The notes below the pieces were generated by a model, which was given only the letters and a program-made list of their open reading frames with translations, did not search any database and was not told the DNA's origin. The position numbers and the translations under genes were made by a program. From an uncultured Acidobacteriota bacterium (GTDB taxonomy: Bacteria > Acidobacteriota > Blastocatellia > RBC074), in the NCBI GenBank assembly GCA_963796275.1, contig CAWCKY010000004.1:192001-256000 (forward strand): DNA of 64,000 nt, written 5' to 3'. This document shows positions 4,984 to 14,718 of this stretch, one piece after another (position 1 is the stretch's first letter; each line of letters opens with the position of its first letter).

Positions 4984-5544
4984 ATGCGATGTTTTATTGC
5001 TATCGAAGTTCCATCAGAGATCAAGGCAGCACTCATAGAGCTGCAGACTGATCTGAGTAGCGCCGGCGCTGATGTGGCCTGGACAAATCCGGACAATGTT
5101 CATCTCACCCTTAAATTTTTGGGTGAGATCAACAAGAAATTGATCAGCGAGGTCGAGAAGGTCTGTCACGATACAATAGCTGAAGTGCCGCCATTTGAGC
5201 TGAGCATCAATGGCATCGGCCTCTTCCCTAATGCACGACACCCGCGTGTCCTGTGGATCGGGCTCGGTGGTGAAATCGAAAAACTCGAGCGATTACAGGA
5301 GCGGCTCGACGAGCGACTGGCCGAAATCGGATTTGATAACGAGGAGAAAGATTTCCAAGCGCACCTGACTGTCGGCCGCATCAGATCGAATAAAAACCTG
5401 CGCGAGTTGCTCGCCAGATCGGTCGGCTACTCGCTGCCGGAGCTCTCATTCGTGGTGAAAGAGATCGTTCTTATGAAGAGCGATCTCCTGCCGACGGGAG
5501 CGTGCTACTCGGAATTGGCGAAAGCCCAATTCAGGGAAAAATAG
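4984..5544 (+). CDS. thpR: RNA 2',3'-cyclic phosphodiesterase (2'-5' RNA ligase family)
   Basis: MRCFIAI start, two 2H motifs HLTL and HLTV, PRVLWIG. Confidence 0.9.
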   Translation: MRCFIAIEVPSEIKAALIELQTDLSSAGADVAWTNPDNVHLTLKFLGEINKKLISEVEKVCHDTIAEVPPFELSINGIGLFPNARHPRVLWIGLGGEIEKLERLQERLDERLAEIGFDNEEKDFQAHLTVGRIRSNKNLRELLARSVGYSLPELSFVVKEIVLMKSDLLPTGACYSELAKAQFREK

Positions 5545-5664
5545 TTGGAGCGAGATGGCTCCATCACAAGACGCGCAAAAGGGAACATAAAATCACAAAT
5601 TGTCATTGCTGTGATTTTTGTGTTCCCTTTTGTGTTTTCCGGATGCCCTTGAATCCCTTCCGCC

Positions 5665-8488
5665 TCAGAGCGTGATCCCTTCATCGCTTCGGCCCAGGAT
5701 GCGCGCGACGACCTTGGCAAGCTGCACCGGTTCGACCGGTTTCGACAGGTGTTGCTGAAAGCCGGCTGAAAGGGCGCTTTCCTTGTCCGATACACCAGCG
5801 AATGCGGTCAATGCGATAGCCGGCACCTCACCTCCCTCTTCCTCCGGAAGCGCCCGGACCTTTTTGATCAGCGCATACCCATCCTCGACCGGCATCCCGA
5901 TATCGGAGACGAGTACGTCCGGCTTCCATTGGGAGAGGACATCCATCGCTTCGGCAGCGGAGGCGGCAGCGCGCACCTCGGTACCGTACCGAGAGAGCAT
6001 GACGCTGAGGATACTCGCGAGTGTCGTGATCATCATCGACAACCAGCACCTTGGCTCCTCGTAGAGATGAGGTCCGCGTATCTGGCTGTTTTTCCGGACG
6101 AATGGGCCATAAACCGCCGGCTTCCACATCGCCCTGCTGCGCCCCCAGCGGCAAGGTGATCATAAAGTCTGATCCCTGCCCGATCCCGCGGCTGTACGCG
6201 TATATTGCGCCACCGTGCAGCTCAACCAGATGCTTGATAATAGCCAGCCCGAGACCTAAGCCCCCCTGCTGGCGGCGCGACGAGCTATCGCCCTGACGGA
6301 ACCGATCGAATATGCGCGGGAGAAACTCGGGATCGATTCCCTGCCCCGTATCGCTGACAATAAGCAGGGCTTTGTTCTCCAACCGCTCGAGACGGACTTC
6401 GATCAATCCGCCAGGCGGCGTGAATTTGATCGCGTTAGAGAGCAGGTTCCAAACGATCTGTTTCAATCGTTCGACATCGCCATTGAAAGGACCGACCCAC
6501 GGCTCGAGAACGATCTGCATCCGCAATTCTTTGCCCTCGACCATGGGGCGCACCGCGTCGACGGCTGCTTCGACGATGGACATCAACTCGACCGGACGAA
6601 TCTCCAGGTTGAGTTTCCCCGTAGCAATGCGCGATGCGTCGAGCAGATCGCCGACCAGATGGGCCTGCGTCTTCGCGTTGCGCTCGATGGTCAACAACGC
6701 CCTATCGAACGAAGCGCGATCGAGCGTGCCGGATCGCAGCATCTGCGCCCAGCCCAGGATGGCGGTGAGCGGCGCCCTCAACTCGTGCGAGATCATCGCC
6801 AAAAAGTCATCCTTCAGGCGGTTCGCATCTTCCGCAACCTGCCGAGCCTCCTGCTCGCGGCTGAGCAGATCTGCGCGCTCCTCCTCGATGCGTACCCGCT
6901 CGACTTCCGACTTCTTGCGCTCCGTGATATCGCGCACGATGCCCGTAAAGGTTTGCCTGCCGTCTTTGACAAACTCGCTGAAACTGACTTCGACCGGGAC
7001 GTCCCGGCCATCCTTATGCCATCCCATCAATTCTATTCCCGCATATCCCCAGAAATTGCTCCGGTGTTGGCAGTGCATAAGCGTCGTCAATTTCTGTCCG
7101 ATGATCTCCGATGGTATATAGCCGAATATCTTCTCAACCGCCGAATTGACGTATTGGATCGTGATCTCTTCGTCCACCGTGAGGATGACATCAGATGCGG
7201 TCTCGGCCACGATGCGATAGCGCTCTTCGCTCTCGTGCAGGGCGGCGGCCATCCGTTCGCGTTCCGTGATGTCACGTATCTGGCTCATGACGATCGTCCC
7301 GTCCTCCGTAACAATCTGGCGCCGCGTGATCTCCGCCAGGAATTCGCGACCGTTACGGCGGATGACCGAGAATCCGACCTGATCGCTCACCCCCGCATCT
7401 CTTCCTATGGGAACCTCATCATCCAGCTCGAAATCATCCAGCTCGAGCAGCATATCCTCATCGGGGTCATCAGACTCTAGAGCCAGTCCAAGGCGACCCG
7501 ACTGTATTGTTTGTGCAGATTGGCCCGTTTGCCCATTCTGCCCCGTAGGTCCCGTTTGGCCCGTCTGCCCCGTCTGGCCGGTCTGCCCCGTCTGCCCCGT
7601 CTGCCCCGTCTGTCCTATTTGTCCAGATTGCCTCGTTTGCCCTGTTTGTCCGATTTGTCCAGATTGTCCCGTATGCCCCGTTTGGGCTATATTTCCAGAC
7701 TTTCCCAACTGTCCGGTTTTCCCCAGTTGACCCGTCTGCCCGATTTGCCCCGTATGCCCCGTTTGTGCATTTGAGGAATCGGGCAAAAGCATAGAGACTG
7801 GTTGGCCGAGCAGTTCCTGGCGATCCACTCCGAAGAGCTTCTCGGTTTGCGAATTGACGAGCACGATCTGACCGTCCTGATTCGCCAGCACAATTGCATC
7901 GGGAGCGAATTCGAGCAACTCCTGGAATCGCGTTCGCGCGGCAACCAGGCTATTGATGAGGCTGCGGTTCTCACGCATATCGCGCGCGACGGCGAGCACG
8001 CCCGTGATCTTGTTCTGTTTGTCCTGCATCAGACTCAGCGAAAAACTGACCGGGATCGTCAGGCCACTCATCGTTCGGATATCGACTTCGAGATTGGGCA
8101 ACCTTCCCGTGGGAGCCAACTCCATCAACTTCCACGGTGTGGCTGGAATTTTCTCGGTGCCACAAACCGCCCTCAACGGGCGTCCGATGATGGAGGACTC
8201 CGGATATTCGAGCAGGTTGGCCGCCGCGGGATTGACCCGGATGACGCGGCCCGACCGGTCCGTCAGAAAGAGCGCCTCCGACATAGACGAGACCACGTGT
8301 TGAAAGAGATCACGCGTTTCGGCGATCTCCGCAGTACGCCGCTCTAGCTCGAATTGCGCATTGGTCAGCTCGGTGTAAGCGCTCTGTAGATTTGCGAACA
8401 TATCAAGCCGGGCAGCCTCGTTCAATTTGCGCGTATTCTCCTGTCGATCGTCATCATCTTCTCTGAATTTCCAGCCCAGTAATTTCAT
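5665..8488 (-). CDS. Cytoplasmic hybrid sensor histidine kinase (3 PAS + HisKA + HATPase + receiver); +1 frameshift near 6013 in the receiver
   Basis: H-box [14 protein letters not shown]-box [21 protein letters not shown]; receiver VLVVDDD continues in the other frame as ILSVML...[10 protein letters not shown]...KP (ORF 5665-6129); GGAGG RBS. Confidence 0.9.
7495..7770 (-). repeat. Intragenic 9-bp repeat tract encoding about 30 Gly-X-Y (mostly GQT) triplets
   Basis: ccccgtctg-type units; translation [16 protein letters not shown]...[21 protein letters not shown]. Confidence 0.9.
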
Positions 8489-8849
8489 TATTCCTCCAGG
8501 TAGGTTCCTCTATCCGTTCGCGCGATTCTGAGTTTTGCTATATCAGTGAAGCACCTCAGCTCTATATTTGGTACTCCGGATCAGGTTGAATCATGTATAC
8601 CGGTTGGTTTCCAGCGGGGCGAATAATGCTCTATGATTCAAGTTTCAACAAGATTCCAGGGGGGCGAAACTAATGCATCGCTCTCGCTTCTAACGAATCT
8701 CAAAATAATTCTAAAATTAGTACTATAAATATTCCGCCTCGCCGAGGCTGTCAATGAAAATCAGGATGACCGGCATCCTCTCTCCATTTTTCCAGTGCCA
8801 AACCAGCGTCAAATTAGTTAGCGCCGGCTCTCAATGACAATTGGAACTG

Positions 8850-10682
8850 TTATGGATCAAAACTGCGAATTGTTCGCAATATATCGATCCCCGTAAAATC
8901 GTCGGGCTTACTGAACGCTTCGAGCAGCGGCGTATTGATGATCGCCTGTTCATATGGGCCCGGCTTGCCGAATGGGTCCTGCGGCGATCCCATCCACTCG
9001 GAAGGAGCGACGATCCGGTAATTTGCGATGCGGCCGCGTCCAATCACTACATGGTGAATCAAGGCGCCCTGCGCGTCTTCCCAAAAACCCACGCCGACAG
9101 CCTCCTCCCGCACTCTATAGGGTTTTGACATCGCCACGTCTCGGCGCTTAAGGCAATCGAAAGCCTTCAAGAGGTATGTCAACGCGATAATGCCGCAGTA
9201 GCCGATATGATAGGCGCGCGCGCGAATGCGATCGAGCGCGTTCGGTCTTTCCGGTATCTGCCAGCGCAACCTTCTGGCCGGTAGTTGAAAACGTGGGAGA
9301 TCGATCTCCAGTCCCATGCCAGCAGCACCGCCGCTGACCGCCTGGATAAACTCGCTCTTCAATTGACCGCCCGCCGCCGTGATCCACTGCCTCGCGAGCG
9401 GACCGGATTCAACCGCCTCACGATCCCAACGTGGCGCCATGTTCCAGCTATACCGGTCCATCCAGTGACTGCGCCCGGGCGCTGGAACCGTATGATTATT
9501 CCATGGATGCAGAGGCGAAAGCGGGATACCCAGCGGATCGACGATCACCGCACCATCATCCCCCTTTTGATAAAAAGAACGGTTGGTAAATTCTTCAATC
9601 CCCGCGTTTATCTCCGATAAACGAACGGTCCTTAATTTACCATTAATTATCACTCCTGGCGTCACAAGCCTACGCACACCCCAGTTATTGGAGTTTTCAA
9701 ACTTCGCATTGTAGCGGGAAGGATCATCCCACATACCCGCCGAGATCAGATTCGCGGGCAAGTAACCGGCGTGATGATAGCGCGCATCGATCTTATAGAA
9801 GAAATTGGCCAGGTCATCCCATATAGCCGCGGTCTTCTTGGCGTAGTCAATCAAGTGATTCAGGCGGCCCAGGACTTGATTGAATATTTCTTTGTCGGGA
9901 AGGATGCCGACTCCGCCGGGAAAGATCGCGGATGGGTGCGGATACTTACCGAAGACGAGCGTAGCGATCTCGCAAGCGATGCGAATCATACCCAATGCTT
10001 CGCGGTAAAGCGCGCCGCTCATCGGGTTCATCTCCCGCATAATGTCGGCGATCGTTTGGTAGCCGTGTAATGCGGAAAATTCGGCCTTCGACTCCTGAGC
10101 TTTAGCCCAGATCGTCATGCTCGTGCGGCTGATCGTCGCCTCCGAATAATCAGGTCCGGATTGCACAAAGAGATGGCGAGTGAGCGATGCCATCAACTCG
10201 GCCGCCGCTCCCAATCCGCGCGTGATAATCGCGAGAGGTGGCGGGGCAATATCCAGCGCCATCTCCAATGCCATGGCCGAGGCAATAGCGTTTGCCCCGG
10301 CGCCCCACCCGCAAATACGGCTGGCGATCGGCACGGCATCAGCCGGCAACCGGCCTTTGAGGATCTGCTCGAGATCCCAAAAATTGGTTTTCTCAACTCG
10401 CGCATCGAGTACCCGGCGGTTTTTGAAGTCTATGATGGCTCGTAGCGATAAGGGATTCTTCGCGCGCGCCAGCGGGTCGACTTCGAAATAACGAGCATCG
10501 GGATTGTTCGCCGCCTCCTCTAACCGCCGTTCGTGGTCCGAGTTCGCTTCAGTCTTAACCGTCCGACCAATTGCCTGCGGTCCGGCAGCCCCTGTCACCG
10601 CAAAGGGATCGGCGGGTCCTCGCAAACGCAACTTCCCCTGACCGCGGGAGTCGAGATCGATTGGCAGATTTTTGAAGACCAT
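8850..10682 (-). CDS. [NiFe]-hydrogenase large-subunit homologue B (group 1h/1l-like) lacking 3 of 4 metal-binding Cys
   Basis: Start MVFKNLPID; DPLAR; L1 motif RICGWG (second Cys lost); GPDYSE, KYPHPSAIFPGG, YSWNMAPRW, ESGPLAR; ends [14 protein letters not shown] without CxxCxxH. Confidence 0.85.
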   Translation of the reverse strand: MVFKNLPIDLDSRGQGKLRLRGPADPFAVTGAAGPQAIGRTVKTEANSDHERRLEEAANNPDARYFEVDPLARAKNPLSLRAIIDFKNRRVLDARVEKTNFWDLEQILKGRLPADAVPIASRICGWGAGANAIASAMALEMALDIAPPPLAIITRGLGAAAELMASLTRHLFVQSGPDYSEATISRTSMTIWAKAQESKAEFSALHGYQTIADIMREMNPMSGALYREALGMIRIACEIATLVFGKYPHPSAIFPGGVGILPDKEIFNQVLGRLNHLIDYAKKTAAIWDDLANFFYKIDARYHHAGYLPANLISAGMWDDPSRYNAKFENSNNWGVRRLVTPGVIINGKLRTVRLSEINAGIEEFTNRSFYQKGDDGAVIVDPLGIPLSPLHPWNNHTVPAPGRSHWMDRYSWNMAPRWDREAVESGPLARQWITAAGGQLKSEFIQAVSGGAAGMGLEIDLPRFQLPARRLRWQIPERPNALDRIRARAYHIGYCGIIALTYLLKAFDCLKRRDVAMSKPYRVREEAVGVGFWEDAQGALIHHVVIGRGRIANYRIVAPSEWMGSPQDPFGKPGPYEQAIINTPLLEAFSKPDDFTGIDILRTIRSFDP

Positions 10683-10834
10683 AGATTGGTGATTGCTGAT
10701 TATTGATTGCAGGGGGATTCTCCACAAAAACCGCATAAATACAAAAGACACAAAAGAGATCTTTTCTTTCTTGTGCCCTTTGTCTTTTCGTATTTTTTTG
10801 GGTGAATCTCTCTCCGCGATCCGCCATCAAGATG

Positions 10835-12625
10835 TTACGGATCGAAGCTGCGAATCGTTCGTAAAAGATCAATGCCTGTGAAATCTTCCGATCGCGTACA
10901 TTCTTCGAAGAGTGGCGTGTTGATCACCGCCGCCTCGTAGATGCCGGGCAATCCCGATGAATCGCGTGGTGATCCCATCCACCCGGTTGGAGTGGTGATC
11001 TGGTAGTTTGAAATGCAAAGATTCCGGTTGACGATGTGATGGGTGATGGCGCCGCTGCTGCTCTCCCAAAATCCGGCGCCGATCGTTTTTTGCGGGATGA
11101 ACTGACCGGCCGACATCCCGGTCTGTCCAGTCCGCACCAGATCGAAGGCTTTGAGCAGGCTGGCATATGCGGTCAGGCCGGCATATGCCATTTGATATGC
11201 GCGGGCGCGGTTGCGCTCGAGTGTGTTCGGCTTTGCCGGTATCTGCCAGCGTAATGTGATGGCCGGCCGCGTGCCCATCGGCATATCAAACTCCAAACCA
11301 TAGCGGTCCTGCCTGATAAATTCACAATCAAGACTTCTGCTCAATGCGTTTACCCAAAGAAGCGCGATCGGCCCCGTCTCCATCGACTGGCGATCCCACC
11401 TCGTCGAGGTGCTCCAGCTGTAGCGATTCTTCAATTGACGTTCAGCCGGATCGGGAATCGTCTCCTTGTTCCACGGATGCAGGTGAGACAGCGGCATGCT
11501 CAAGGGATCAGTCGGAAACGAACAATGATTCCATTGCCGATAGAATGAGTGATCGATAAATTCTTCGATCCCTATGTTGATATCGCTCAGCCTCGCCGTG
11601 CGCCATTCCCGGTTAGTGATGATACCCGGGCTCGCCATTCGGCGCCTCGCCCATTCATTACAGTTCGCGTAACTCGCGTCGTAACTTGCGGGATCGTCCC
11701 AACACCCCACGCTCAGAAAATTTCCCGGCAATTCGCCGGCGAGGCGATAGAGCGGGTCTGCTTCATAAAAGAACTCTACCAGGTCGTCCCAGATCGCCGT
11801 AACTTTCTTCGAGTAATCGAGCAGCGTGCTGACGCGACCGAGAATCTGATTAAAAAGATCCTTGTCCGCTTCGATCCCCAATCCGCCAGGATAAATCGTG
11901 GTCGGATGCGGATACTTGCCGAAAATCATGGTGGCGATTTCGCATCCCAACCTCGACATCTGGAGAGCCTCGAGATAAAGCGGGCCGTACATCGTGTTCA
12001 TCTCGCGCATGATATCGGCGATGGACATCAGACCGTGAATCTCGACGCCAGGAGCCCTCGTCACTTGCGCTTTGGCCCATATCGAGAGGCTGGTGCGACT
12101 GACTGCGGCCTCGGAATAGTCCGGCCCGGTGAGCAGGAATAGATGGCGGGCGCATTCGCTCAGCATCTCGCCACACGATCCCAGATTCCGCGCGATGATC
12201 GCCAGCGGGGGCGGCGTGAGATTCCCGGTCATCTCCAATGCCATCGTTGCGGCGATCGCGTGGGCGCCGCTCGCTCGCCCACTGGTGCGGCAGGCGATCT
12301 GAGTTGCATCGAAAGGATTCCTCTCCTTCAACATCAGTTCAAAGCCGCAGAATTGCGTGTTTTCGACGTAGGCATCGAGCACTCGCCGTTGCTCGAAATC
12401 GATTATAGAATTCAAGACCAACCCGCCCGATGCGCGCGTCAACGGATCGATCGTGAAATTCCATACGTCCGGACTTTCGGCACCGCTTTCCATCGTTTGC
12501 TCTATCCCCGGCGCGCGATCCACACGGGGTTCTTCAACGATGTCGAAAGACGCTACCGGTCTATTGTCGTTCAAACGCGCTCGCCCGTAGGCATCATATT
12601 TGATTGGCAAACTCTTGAATACCAC
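10835..12625 (-). CDS. [NiFe]-hydrogenase large-subunit homologue A (group 1h/1l-like) lacking all 4 metal-binding Cys
   Basis: DPLTRASG; L1 motif RTSGRA in place of RxCGxC; [24 protein letters not shown]; ends [14 protein letters not shown]. Confidence 0.85.
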
Positions 12626-12716
12626 TGATTCCAGTTTCCAGTGTTCTGTTTTCAGTTATCAGTTTTCAGACAATCAAGATCGGCAACCACTAAAAACTGA
12701 ATTGAAAACTATTTTT

Positions 12717-13562
12717 TCAACCCGGGTCCGGACGGGCGAGATGAAGGAGGCGATCGGCGAAACCACGCTCGGTACAACCGATGCAACTCCCACCCACGCG
12801 GACACAACCGCCGAAATTCCTCAACCACCCATTGACCGGCACCGAGCAATTGACCGTCGGGCGGTTCGTCAGATCAATTCCGCCAGCCGGAGAATATTCG
12901 ACACGCGGTGGCAATGGATGTGTTTGGTGACTGAAAAGCCAGCGAGGACGGCGTTCCTCATCCAAATCGATGGGTACCAGTTGAGCTAAATGCAGAAAAA
13001 CGTAAATCAAGGTCTCAATAAAACCTTCACCTGTCGGAGCACAACCTGGAAGATTGATGACGGGCAATTTGGCCTGGCTTCTGAAATCCTGGCCTAGATA
13101 TTCATCGAGGCCGTTGGCAGCGATCGGGCTGCCGGCCGAAGCCGGAATACCTCCCCAGGTCGCACAGCTACCAATCGCTATAACCGCCTCGGCCCTGCGC
13201 GCCAGCCGGTCAACCCACGCGGCGGTCGTGATCGGCTTGCCATTCTGTGTCATTCCCAAACGTGAAAAGCTTCCATCTCCGGCGCGCGACTCGTCCGGGA
13301 TTGCACCTTCAAGCACCAGAACAAAGGGAGAGTAGGCGCCCTCGGCAGCGCGTTCGAGATGGGCGCGATACGAATCGCCGCTCTCCAGTGAAAATTCGGG
13401 GTGAATCATTACTACGCGAGGCACGTCGGGCACATTGCCCATAATTAAATCTTCTATCCCGGGTTCAGAGGCGCAGAGCATCGCCATCGTGCATCCGTTG
13501 CAACCAGCCCCGGTTAACCAGATCAGATGTACAGCCTCGAGCGATGTCCCTTCGCTCTGCAT
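12717..13562 (-). CDS. [NiFe]-hydrogenase small-subunit homologue (no Tat signal; distal-cluster motif missing)
   Basis: [42 protein letters not shown]...[14 protein letters not shown]...GF; GAGGAG RBS. Confidence 0.88.
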
Positions 13563-13971
13563 GGATAACTCCTCAAAAGATTATTTCATCAGCTCTCTAA
13601 ATGGGGGGGATGTGAGCTGAAACTACAGAAACGATCCACTCATACGACCAGTGACAATGATCAACCTAAGTTTAATATGATCAAATGATTTCCGCTACTG
13701 GCTGTCGCTCAGTCATGAGTGAGCGGATTATAAACATACTAATCAGGTTGCGCAACTGGTCTGACGCTACCCGTGAATTTGCGTGTAATCGCGGTAGAGA
13801 ATAGAATCACCGTTCTTCATTCGTCTCGTATCTTCGTGTTCTATTTTCAGACCACCCGTTCAACGAACGTTGCGCGAAAACCACTGAAAATAGACAGGAT
13901 TTATCGGATTTTCAGGATTTACCGGGTCGCAGCGATTCTTGAAAATACCGTCTATTGCCAGAGGAGTTTTT

Positions 13972-14718
13972 ATGAACCCTGAGCAACTTCAGAAGTTGCA
14001 TTACGACCGTATCGCTCAAGAATATGAGGCCCATTATGACGATTCAAACAGCCAGCGATACCGCGACAAATTCTATCATCGGACGATGTTCGAGGGGATG
14101 AATCTGACCGGCATGAATGTGCTCGAGGCGATGTGCGGGAGCGGGCAAACGACCCAATTCCTGCTCTCCGAGGGCGCGCAGGTCACCGGTTTGGATATCT
14201 CGAATGAGACCATATCTTCCTTCAGCAGACGCTGGCCAAATTGCAATGCGATCTGCGCTTCGCTGCTCGATTCAGGGTTGGAGAGCGACTCATTCGATGC
14301 CGTCTCGATAGTGGGCGGGCTGCATCATCTGCCTCCCTATGTCGAGAACGCGATCAGCGAAATTCATCGTATTCTCAAGCCGGGCGGATATCTGTGTTTC
14401 GCCGAACCTCATAAAGGATCACTCCCCGACCTGATTCGGCAACTGTGGTACAAACACGATTCGCTCTTCGCCAGCAATGAAGAGGCTATCGATATGACCG
14501 AGCTAAAACGGGCGTTCGCATCGCAGTTCAGCTTCAGAAGAGAGCGATACCTAGGCAACGTCGCGTACCTGCTCGTGCTGAATTCGATGGTCTTCCGTAT
14601 TCCGCTGAGATTGAAACCCGTCTACTCCCCCGCTCTTATACATCTGGAATCTGTGCTCAACCTACTTCAAAGCAAAATGACGGCGTGTCTTGTCGTCTGC
14701 CAATGGCAAAAAAGATGA
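13972..14718 (+). CDS. Class I SAM-dependent methyltransferase
   Basis: [20 protein letters not shown]...[14 protein letters not shown]; GAGGAG RBS before ATG 13972. Confidence 0.85.

Follow-up and report, generated by a model that had tools for sequence, protein, structure and literature searches.

In Cupriavidus necator, the hydrogenase HoxBC and the kinase HoxJ form one sensing complex (PMC10073562), and the HydDB table recognizes sensory [NiFe] enzymes in groups 2b and 2c only (PMC5037454). Here, we describe a locus that is built from similar genes and lies in a 64,000-nucleotide stretch of DNA from an uncultured soil bacterium of the Acidobacteriota (this whole stretch is referred to as the window). 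Four co-oriented minus-strand genes at window positions 5665-13562 encode a hydrogenase small subunit (S), two large subunits (A and B) and a histidine kinase with PAS domains, a layout that had been proposed in an initial annotation of the DNA and that is borne out by the open reading frames (ORFs) and their Pfam matches. Our preferred reading, to which we assign a probability of roughly 60%, is that the downstream PAS kinase is served by a cytoplasmic receptor made up of S, A and B, which has the shape of a hydrogenase but no nickel, and that this receptor has its origin in a true H2 sensor within the group 1h/1l lineage.

Both large subunits belong to the PF00374 family by sequence and by whole-length fold. 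Subunit A (10835..12625, minus strand, as for all genes and features of the locus given below; 596 amino acids (aa), start MVFKSLP) matches this family with an E value of 2e-49 and subunit B (8850..10679; 609 aa) with 4e-56, despite which both fall far under every NCBIfam cut-off. The B frame is open up to 10751; by analogy with A and nearly all relatives, its true start is probably the MVFKNLP at 10679. Ligand positions were assigned by alignment with the genome's own group 1h-type large subunit, which carries RICGICGDNH and RSFDPCLPCGVH. Neither A nor B has the enzyme motif RxCGxCxxxH with both of its cysteines: the L1 motif of A has lost the two, and that of B, RICGWGAGAN, keeps one. At the other end of both proteins, the sequence stops at RSFDP followed by TAA, and the C-terminal CxxCxxH (sought as DPCxxCxxH) is missing. 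In all, A retains none of the four Ni-Fe cysteines and B retains one, in agreement with the original proposal that these subunits of about 600 aa are unable to build a [NiFe] site. A recoded stop codon or a downstream remnant of CxxCxxH was considered and rejected, as both genes end in TAA and the downstream bases encode no such motif.

The arginine of the EAxRG motif, the 'canopy' arginine, is an active-site residue of [NiFe] large subunits. It is replaced by Ser in A and by Gln in B; across the family, Arg is found at this position in 26 of 41 A-clade sequences, and Gln is the commonest residue in the B clade (23 of 30). The overall fold of A could be assigned with the help of solved structures. 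Its best solved relative is 5AA5 (chain 5AA5_C, E value 2.1e-109), compared with only 4e-19 for the group 2a enzyme Huc, which supports the 1h/1l-like scaffold suggested earlier. An AlphaFold model of A, with a predicted local distance difference test (pLDDT) value of 78.7 and a predicted template-modelling (TM) score of 0.85, gave TM scores of 0.85/0.90 to 5AA5_C.

Many other sequences share the loss of ligands. Among the best 120 clusters at 90% identity found with A (the window's own counted), 84 lack the C-terminal CxxC and end in RSF(D)P, and both L1 cysteines are present in none of these 84; a further 34 are intact and carry a C-terminal extension ending in CxC, and the remaining two, also intact, have the His as their last residue. 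The 71 pseudo sequences collected from genomes give a similar picture: the first L1 cysteine occurs in 11 of them, and the second L1 cysteine and the C-terminal pair occur in none. The second L1 position is occupied by Ser in 28 of 41 A sequences and by Gly in 24 of 30 B sequences, and the position that follows it by Ser in 39 of 41 and 29 of 30, respectively. In A, the residue at the first L1 position varies strongly (R, C, S, K, P, E or Q). More than 100 columns are invariant in an alignment of 31 family members, and none of them is a Cys. A search against representatives at 50% identity added divergent ligand-less forms, namely P0121 (ending in RSFDS), P0122 (ending in RSFDV) and P0139 (802 aa), and it revealed no new gene context. 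Three large subunits distant from A (P0125, P0126 and P0131) also end exactly at the C-terminal His (DPCxNCAxH-stop) and may be other extension-less, possibly sensory forms.

Ratios of nonsynonymous to synonymous substitution rates (dN/dS) were calculated by the Nei-Gojobori method for pairs pre-filtered to a tree distance of 0.03-0.45. The median was 0.10 in the A clade (maximum 0.20; 128 usable of 129 pairs) and 0.10 in the B clade (maximum 0.26; 72 usable of 75 pairs). The initial annotation had named intact CxxC motifs in close relatives, together with dN/dS near 1, as signs of recent decay; instead, the truncated form predominates among the best clusters and dN/dS is about 0.1. Together with the size of the family and its conserved synteny, this supports the view that A and B are selected ligand-less family members and not products of recent decay. 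All four genes appear to be under purifying selection in a fixed order, with dN/dS computed for the A and B clades.

Linkage to the kinase proved to be equally consistent. A scan of 185,579 species genomes resulted in 77 loci, which were sorted with our own ORF and BLAST script (locus L015 of genome G024 was left out of the analysis). At least one complete pseudo large subunit was present in 43 of these loci, and a kinase with the N-terminal module of the window type was located directly downstream of the large subunit(s) in all 38 loci that could be assessed at this end. The 38 loci comprise 28 with two pseudo subunits and then the kinase (three cut at the S end and two with a broken A), 7 with a single pseudo subunit and the kinase, and 3 in which a pseudo A is followed by an intact-ligand subunit ending at the His, designated B', and the kinase. 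Absence of the C-terminal extension in B' is presumably the same arrangement as in HoxC. The S-L-L-kinase synteny is thus conserved in genomes other than the one in which it was noticed, and a kinase that is not syntenic elsewhere, which the initial annotation had listed as a refuting observation, was not encountered. Four of the five unassessable loci (L061, L072, L073 and L087) stop or are cut at the kinase end. In the fifth, L062, the B frame continues uninterrupted to give an ORF of 3296 aa (L062:11644-21534; long-read assembly), and no separate kinase ORF was scored; this ORF may be a B-kinase fusion or a sequencing artifact. The L1 motif of L061 is of the B' type, and in L077, B' and the kinase are seen at the start of the contig. 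Two genomes of the window's family have the same gene order; their hybrid kinases are intact (1005 and 874 aa), and one of the two kinase genes shares an 11-nucleotide (nt) overlap with B.

The kinase ORF of the window (5828-8488) encodes 886 aa with the order PAS-PAS-PAS-HisKA-HATPase, its tail residues being out of frame. Hydrogenase-linked kinases span 754 to 1746 aa and have two to many further PAS/GAF domains; the only part conserved across all of them is the N-terminal helix and the first PAS domain, PAS1 (residues 1-190; 7919..8488), and we propose that the kinase docks through this module. Among pseudo loci, residues 1-237 share 71-82% identity, compared with 47-64% for the large subunits, and the helix-PAS1 module also heads the kinases beside intact-ligand relatives (first ~170 residues, 29-56% identity). 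A genome-wide search for a second copy of this module, which included a hydrogenase-kinase locus on contig C6 of the same assembly, found none. The term 'HoxJ/HupT-like' used for this kinase at first holds for its architecture only. In two intact-B' loci, a second PAS-GAF hybrid kinase of 781-782 aa is encoded just upstream of S on the same strand (L046:5889-8234 and L061:6237-8585), and its core is 73-76% identical to that of the window kinase.

The small subunit S (12717..13562; 281 aa) contains the Pfam domains Oxidored_q6 (PF01058) and NiFe_hyd_SSU_C (PF14720) and matches 5AA5_A with an E value of 5.6e-67. Its N-terminus, read directly, has no twin-arginine motif, and the protein is assigned to the cytoplasm. 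All four proximal and all four medial [4Fe-4S] cysteines are kept; of the distal-cluster ligands, only the His remains, three of four being gone, and the C-terminus is short, so that two of the three clusters are possible. The same pattern was observed in all 47 short kinase-linked S sequences (the window's S, 37 beside pseudo subunits and 9 beside intact ones; in three of the 47, the N-terminal part is missing because the contig ends there), which keep the four medial cysteines and every proximal Cys position covered and have lost distal ligands 2-4. All 17 long catalytic S sequences keep the distal H-C-C-C.

When the relatives are arranged by gene content, they form a series: catalytic 1l-like enzymes; intact S-L-kinase systems; Blastocatellia-labelled loci with a pseudo and an intact subunit; and loci in which the large subunits, two or one in number, are pseudo forms. 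Catalytic loci that lack a kinase number 22. S is on the contig in 14 of these and is long (407-588 aa); it is separated from the large subunit by 0.8-2 kb in 11 of the 14 and adjacent to it in three. The nearest catalytic relatives start with M(C/V)FKNLP and have a C-terminal CxC tail. These kinase-less loci appear to be organized like group 1l, an assignment made from gene layout only. Another 11 loci combine a fully liganded large subunit (RACGVCGGVH and DPCxPCxxH plus extension) with a short S and the kinase, and their genomes are labelled Rokubacteriota, Chloroflexota, Gemmatimonadota, Actinomycetota and, in one case, 'Acidobacterium sp.' The initial annotation had recognized a kinase-linked pseudo-hydrogenase and missed these intact-ligand relatives with the same kinase. 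That description has to be amended accordingly, as these relatives mark the system as derived from a true H2 sensor. In three genomes (L074, L078 and L085), one stretch of 13-18 kb encodes both an intact sensor linked to the kinase and a catalytic 1l-like hydrogenase, a co-location that would be expected if the sensor regulates that catalytic enzyme.

A tree of 112 large subunits (FastTree, LG+gamma, SH-like supports) reproduced these groups. The kinase-less catalytic sequences form one clade (25 sequences, support 0.976), and all kinase-linked sequences form another (86, 0.834). Within the latter, all 71 pseudo subunits group together (0.948) as a sister clade of B' (4 sequences, 0.993), with a joint support of 0.942. 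Two clades, each with a support of 1.0, make up the pseudo group, namely A (41 sequences) and B (30 sequences); the window's B is a member of the B clade, and the single-subunit forms group with the A subunits of A-B' loci (1.0). Large-subunit duplication and pseudo forms both lie in Blastocatellia-labelled genomes. From these data, we infer that the distal cluster was lost and the kinase gained before the large subunit was duplicated, and that the Ni-Fe site was then lost in one copy and later in both. A number of loci (L045, L049, L051, L054, L058, L060, L068 and others) are labelled 'uncultured Heliomicrobium sp.' or 'Heliobacteriaceae'; they are 57-64% identical to A and have Blastocatellia-like synteny, and these names look like mislabels.

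A broader proposal, which we hold tentatively and at somewhat less than even odds, is that these loci represent an unrecognized class of group 1 (1h/1l-derived) H2-sensing hydrogenase-kinase systems, found in loci labelled with at least five phyla and convergent with group 2b. Blastocatellia-labelled genomes would have kept its stepwise series, from an intact sensor through a mixed pair to a nickel-free receptor that no longer responds to H2 and senses redox, O2 or NO through the Fe-S clusters that it has kept.

In the mechanism that we propose for the window, A and B would serve as scaffolds holding S, with its proximal and medial [4Fe-4S] clusters. The helix-PAS1 part of the kinase would dock on this assembly, probably on S where the distal-cluster region once was. 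The oxidation state or integrity of the two clusters would report redox poise, O2 or NO, and not H2, and would set autokinase activity; phosphate would then pass from the His to the receiver Asp and on to an Hpt protein or response regulator. The output end may be damaged in this genome because the receiver domain is frameshifted (see below). Fe-S redox state is our best guess for the signal, and the observation that speaks for it is the retention of the eight cluster cysteines in S.

Docking was examined by a complex prediction, which covers the S and kinase 1-190 part of the structure prediction of the whole system that had been suggested earlier. With alignments of 39 rows for S and 38 rows for the kinase segment, the median score was 0.42 (runs 0.33, 0.43 and 0.42) against 0.00 for the best control; the pLDDT of the partners was at least 81, and the runs agreed in at least 93% of contacts. 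In the calibration of this procedure, 58 of 80 solved complexes passed the mark, as did 2 of 110 mismatched pairs; at scores of 0.60 or less, only 7 of the 80 solved complexes passed, along with both of these mismatches. The result was accordingly rated as weak support.

The window's own kinase gene differs from its orthologs in several respects. Its in-frame body (6014..8488) extends from the three PAS domains through HisKA and HATPase_c into the first part of the receiver. Inside the receiver, between DDDHDTRE and ILSVML, the frame is shifted by one surplus base at 6013, which is a T in the coding-strand sequence; the window reads CGCGAG-T-ATC at this point, and the orthologs in L058, L064 and L083 read through with CG[CG]GA[GA]-ATC. 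The remainder of the receiver (REC) domain (5665..6012) follows in another frame and shares 70-82% identity with the C-terminal ends of orthologous hybrid kinases, and the second-frame stretch 5665-6129 matches PF00072 (E value 2e-18). The 'hybrid kinase' described initially is therefore correct in that HisKA, HATPase_c and the receiver are all present, but not as a single open frame in the assembled sequence; orthologous hybrid kinases are intact. Two substitutions, W27R and P28L, occur in the nearly invariant AAWPDMF motif of the N-terminal module. A (GQT)n tandem repeat of about 18 copies (7510..7699; 9-nt and 36-nt periods; Pfam 'Collagen') occurs within the second PAS domain; none of the orthologs aligned has it. 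Of the highly conserved columns, the kinase module departs from the family in 8 of 118, S in 5 of 132, A in 5 of 158 and B in 4 of 133; for the three subunits, these numbers fall inside the spread seen among other members. These features suggest that the local copy of the kinase may be losing function. The large subunit of a hydrogenase on contig C6 of the same assembly has one extra G in a run of G near C6:2231440, which makes an assembly error possible at 6013 as well; the extra T could be such an error or a real mutation.

S and A are separated by 91 bp, and the spacer between B and the kinase (8489..8849) measures 361 bp, close to the gap of about 360 bp first noted. In relatives, the latter distance is typically ~100-125 bp, and the two genes overlap by 11 nt in L039/L064. 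Promoter- and terminator-like sites over 5400-14000 (spacer included) were not commoner than in shuffled sequence, and such scans thus say nothing on a separate kinase transcript.

A number of observations count against our preferred reading. The pairs used for dN/dS are mutually non-independent, and so are the related loci. B' falls outside A and B in the tree though it occupies the B position, which makes the proposed order of losses tentative. The complex prediction was run with S and the kinase segment and without A or B, and the exposed large-subunit-binding face of S could attract a partner. The signal itself is a guess, and the redox lability of the predicted S clusters is putative. A search for HypD gave no match in 6 of the 15 other pseudo-only genomes tested (G402, G406, G408, G414, G416 and G417), of which G402 also has no other PF00374 match; however, HypD was likewise not found in two of five genomes with a fully liganded B', so that its absence from metagenome-assembled genomes of unstated completeness says little and the argument from nickel machinery is weak. 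The B-kinase gap is longer than in relatives, and the kinase carries a frameshift, a repeat insertion and the eight changed module columns. Finally, PAS1 has no invariant Cys or His, and no cofactor site is thus seen in this domain.

The last of these points would also fit a role for S-A-B in which it senses nothing and stays as an obligatory structural partner or stabilizer, leaving the signal to the further PAS domains of the kinase. The number of additional PAS/GAF domains in these kinases and the lack of any invariant Cys in the pseudo subunits are compatible with this idea, which we nevertheless regard as rather unlikely, given the strong selection on some 1,500 scaffold residues and the retention of all eight S cluster cysteines wherever covered, which is hard to explain for a mere brace. 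It is also conceivable, though improbable in our view, that A and/or B take up a small molecule in their vacated active-site pocket and gas channels, and that the signal is this binding event rather than Fe-S redox state. Preservation of the fold, maintenance of two distinct paralogs and the non-random replacements at and after the second L1 position would be in line with such a receptor, but the first L1 position varies widely in A, there are no conserved metal-binding residues, and no ligand is known.

Persistence of H2 sensing through a non-canonical metal site would be suggested by descent from an H2 sensor and by genomes that pair A with a fully liganded B'; nonetheless, with at most one of four cysteines left, the C-terminal His gone, the canopy Arg lost in the window's A and B and HypD not found in some of the pseudo-only genomes tested, this is highly improbable. 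Still less credible is the notion that A and B are recent pseudogenes, that is, decaying copies of a working hydrogenase. It can appeal to ligand loss itself and to nothing further, against low dN/dS, full-length ORFs across dozens of genomes, more than 100 invariant columns in 31 sequences and an identical truncation point in 84 of the best 120 clusters. A separate matter is whether the family is functional and only the copy in this genome is being lost, its kinase truncated before the receiver. The one-base insertion, the altered AAWPDMF motif and other changed module columns, the repeat in the second PAS domain and the long B-kinase gap would all point in this direction. However, S, A and B are intact and deviate no more than those of other members, the homopolymer insertion on C6 shows that errors occur in this assembly, and a receiver-less kinase can still signal; we therefore consider local decay a real possibility, but a doubtful one. 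The preferred reading remains that S-A-B is a nickel-free receptor for the kinase.

The source genome comprises 9.46 Mb in 7 contigs and is 94.7% complete with 5.2% contamination; the closest loci elsewhere are labelled Blastocatellia or Acidobacteriota. As was noted at the start, the window contains no hyp gene, maturation protease, cytochrome b or Tat signal: the genome's only matches to HypD, a HycI-type protease and Ni_hydr_CYTB lie on other contigs. Contig C6 carries a complete 1h-type hydrogenase with hyp genes. A second 1h-type locus on this contig (C6:2226863-2232288) is unusually arranged, with the large subunit first, then the small subunit and then a hybrid kinase, and is flanked by two more hybrid kinases (C6:2224622-2226769 and 2233069-2235180); its kinase is without the N-terminal module of the window kinase, and its large subunit is the one split by the extra G. 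Around the window's locus, a functional link was sought among the flanking genes and none was found. Conserved flank families (fatty-acyl reductase-like, pyruvyl-transferase-like, LigT and HYR-domain proteins) include no hyp or hydrogenase genes, and we read their conservation as lineage synteny.

These findings bear on several questions. A soluble group 1 scaffold that keeps its kinase while losing nickel, with living intermediates, offers a natural experiment on how a metalloenzyme becomes a pseudoenzyme receptor. The intact-ligand relatives are likely a new H2-sensor family in abundant soil phyla that scavenge atmospheric H2. In metagenome surveys, genes of this kind are annotated as 'nickel-dependent hydrogenase large subunit' and may be miscounted as evidence of H2 oxidizers. 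In addition, the compact Fe-S/kinase module is a candidate for a redox or gas biosensor.

Similar loss of the catalytic site is known from distant proteins. NuoD has kept the [NiFe] large-subunit fold after loss of the metal-binding cysteines, and to our knowledge, Ni-Fe site loss is known only from group 4-derived membrane complexes. In Ehr, the group 4-related large-subunit fold is without metal-binding cysteines (PMC7304191). As in Ehr and NuoD, the fold of the window's large subunits is kept under selection after cysteine loss; unlike the window system, both are membrane-bound, energy-converting group 4 complexes with no two-component link and no tandem pseudo paralogs. In Nar1/NARF, an [FeFe]-hydrogenase-like scaffold lost its catalytic cluster and kept accessory Fe-S clusters for a new role (PMC12621388), but this is an unrelated eukaryotic family with a role in Fe-S protein assembly and no kinase.

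The closest sequences and fold to the window subunits are those of group 1h (Hhy/AH, PDB 5AA5) and group 1l (Hyl). Enzymes of these groups have four Ni-Fe cysteines, three Fe-S clusters, an S of 407-588 aa and no kinase, whereas the window has an S of 281 aa with cysteines for two clusters, and its A and B are without the site. In the description of group 1l, S and L lie apart, with five interposed genes and short transmembrane genes (10.1101/2020.08.06.239558). Such a spaced layout was seen only in the kinase-less catalytic relatives and not in the window, where S and A are adjacent and the site is absent. In the full-text literature (subscription journals and supplements being outside its scope), we found no account of ligand-less group 1 large subunits or of a group 1 hydrogenase-kinase sensor, in agreement with the initial annotation, which knew of no described case in a 1h/1l-like scaffold duplicated beside a kinase.

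In organization, the locus is most like the group 2b sensors HoxBC-HoxJ and HupUV-HupT, in which a cytoplasmic small and large subunit are encoded beside a PAS histidine kinase. The adjacent PAS kinase is present in the window, but the functional H2-binding Ni-Fe site of group 2b is absent from A and B. The window system also differs in the loss of the distal cluster, duplication of the large subunit and a hybrid kinase with a receiver. Its lineage is nearest to the solved group 1h structure 5AA5, a placement made indirectly, by solved structures including group 2a and not by group 2b sequences. We would file the window system as a putative hydrogenase-kinase sensor of another lineage and without nickel.

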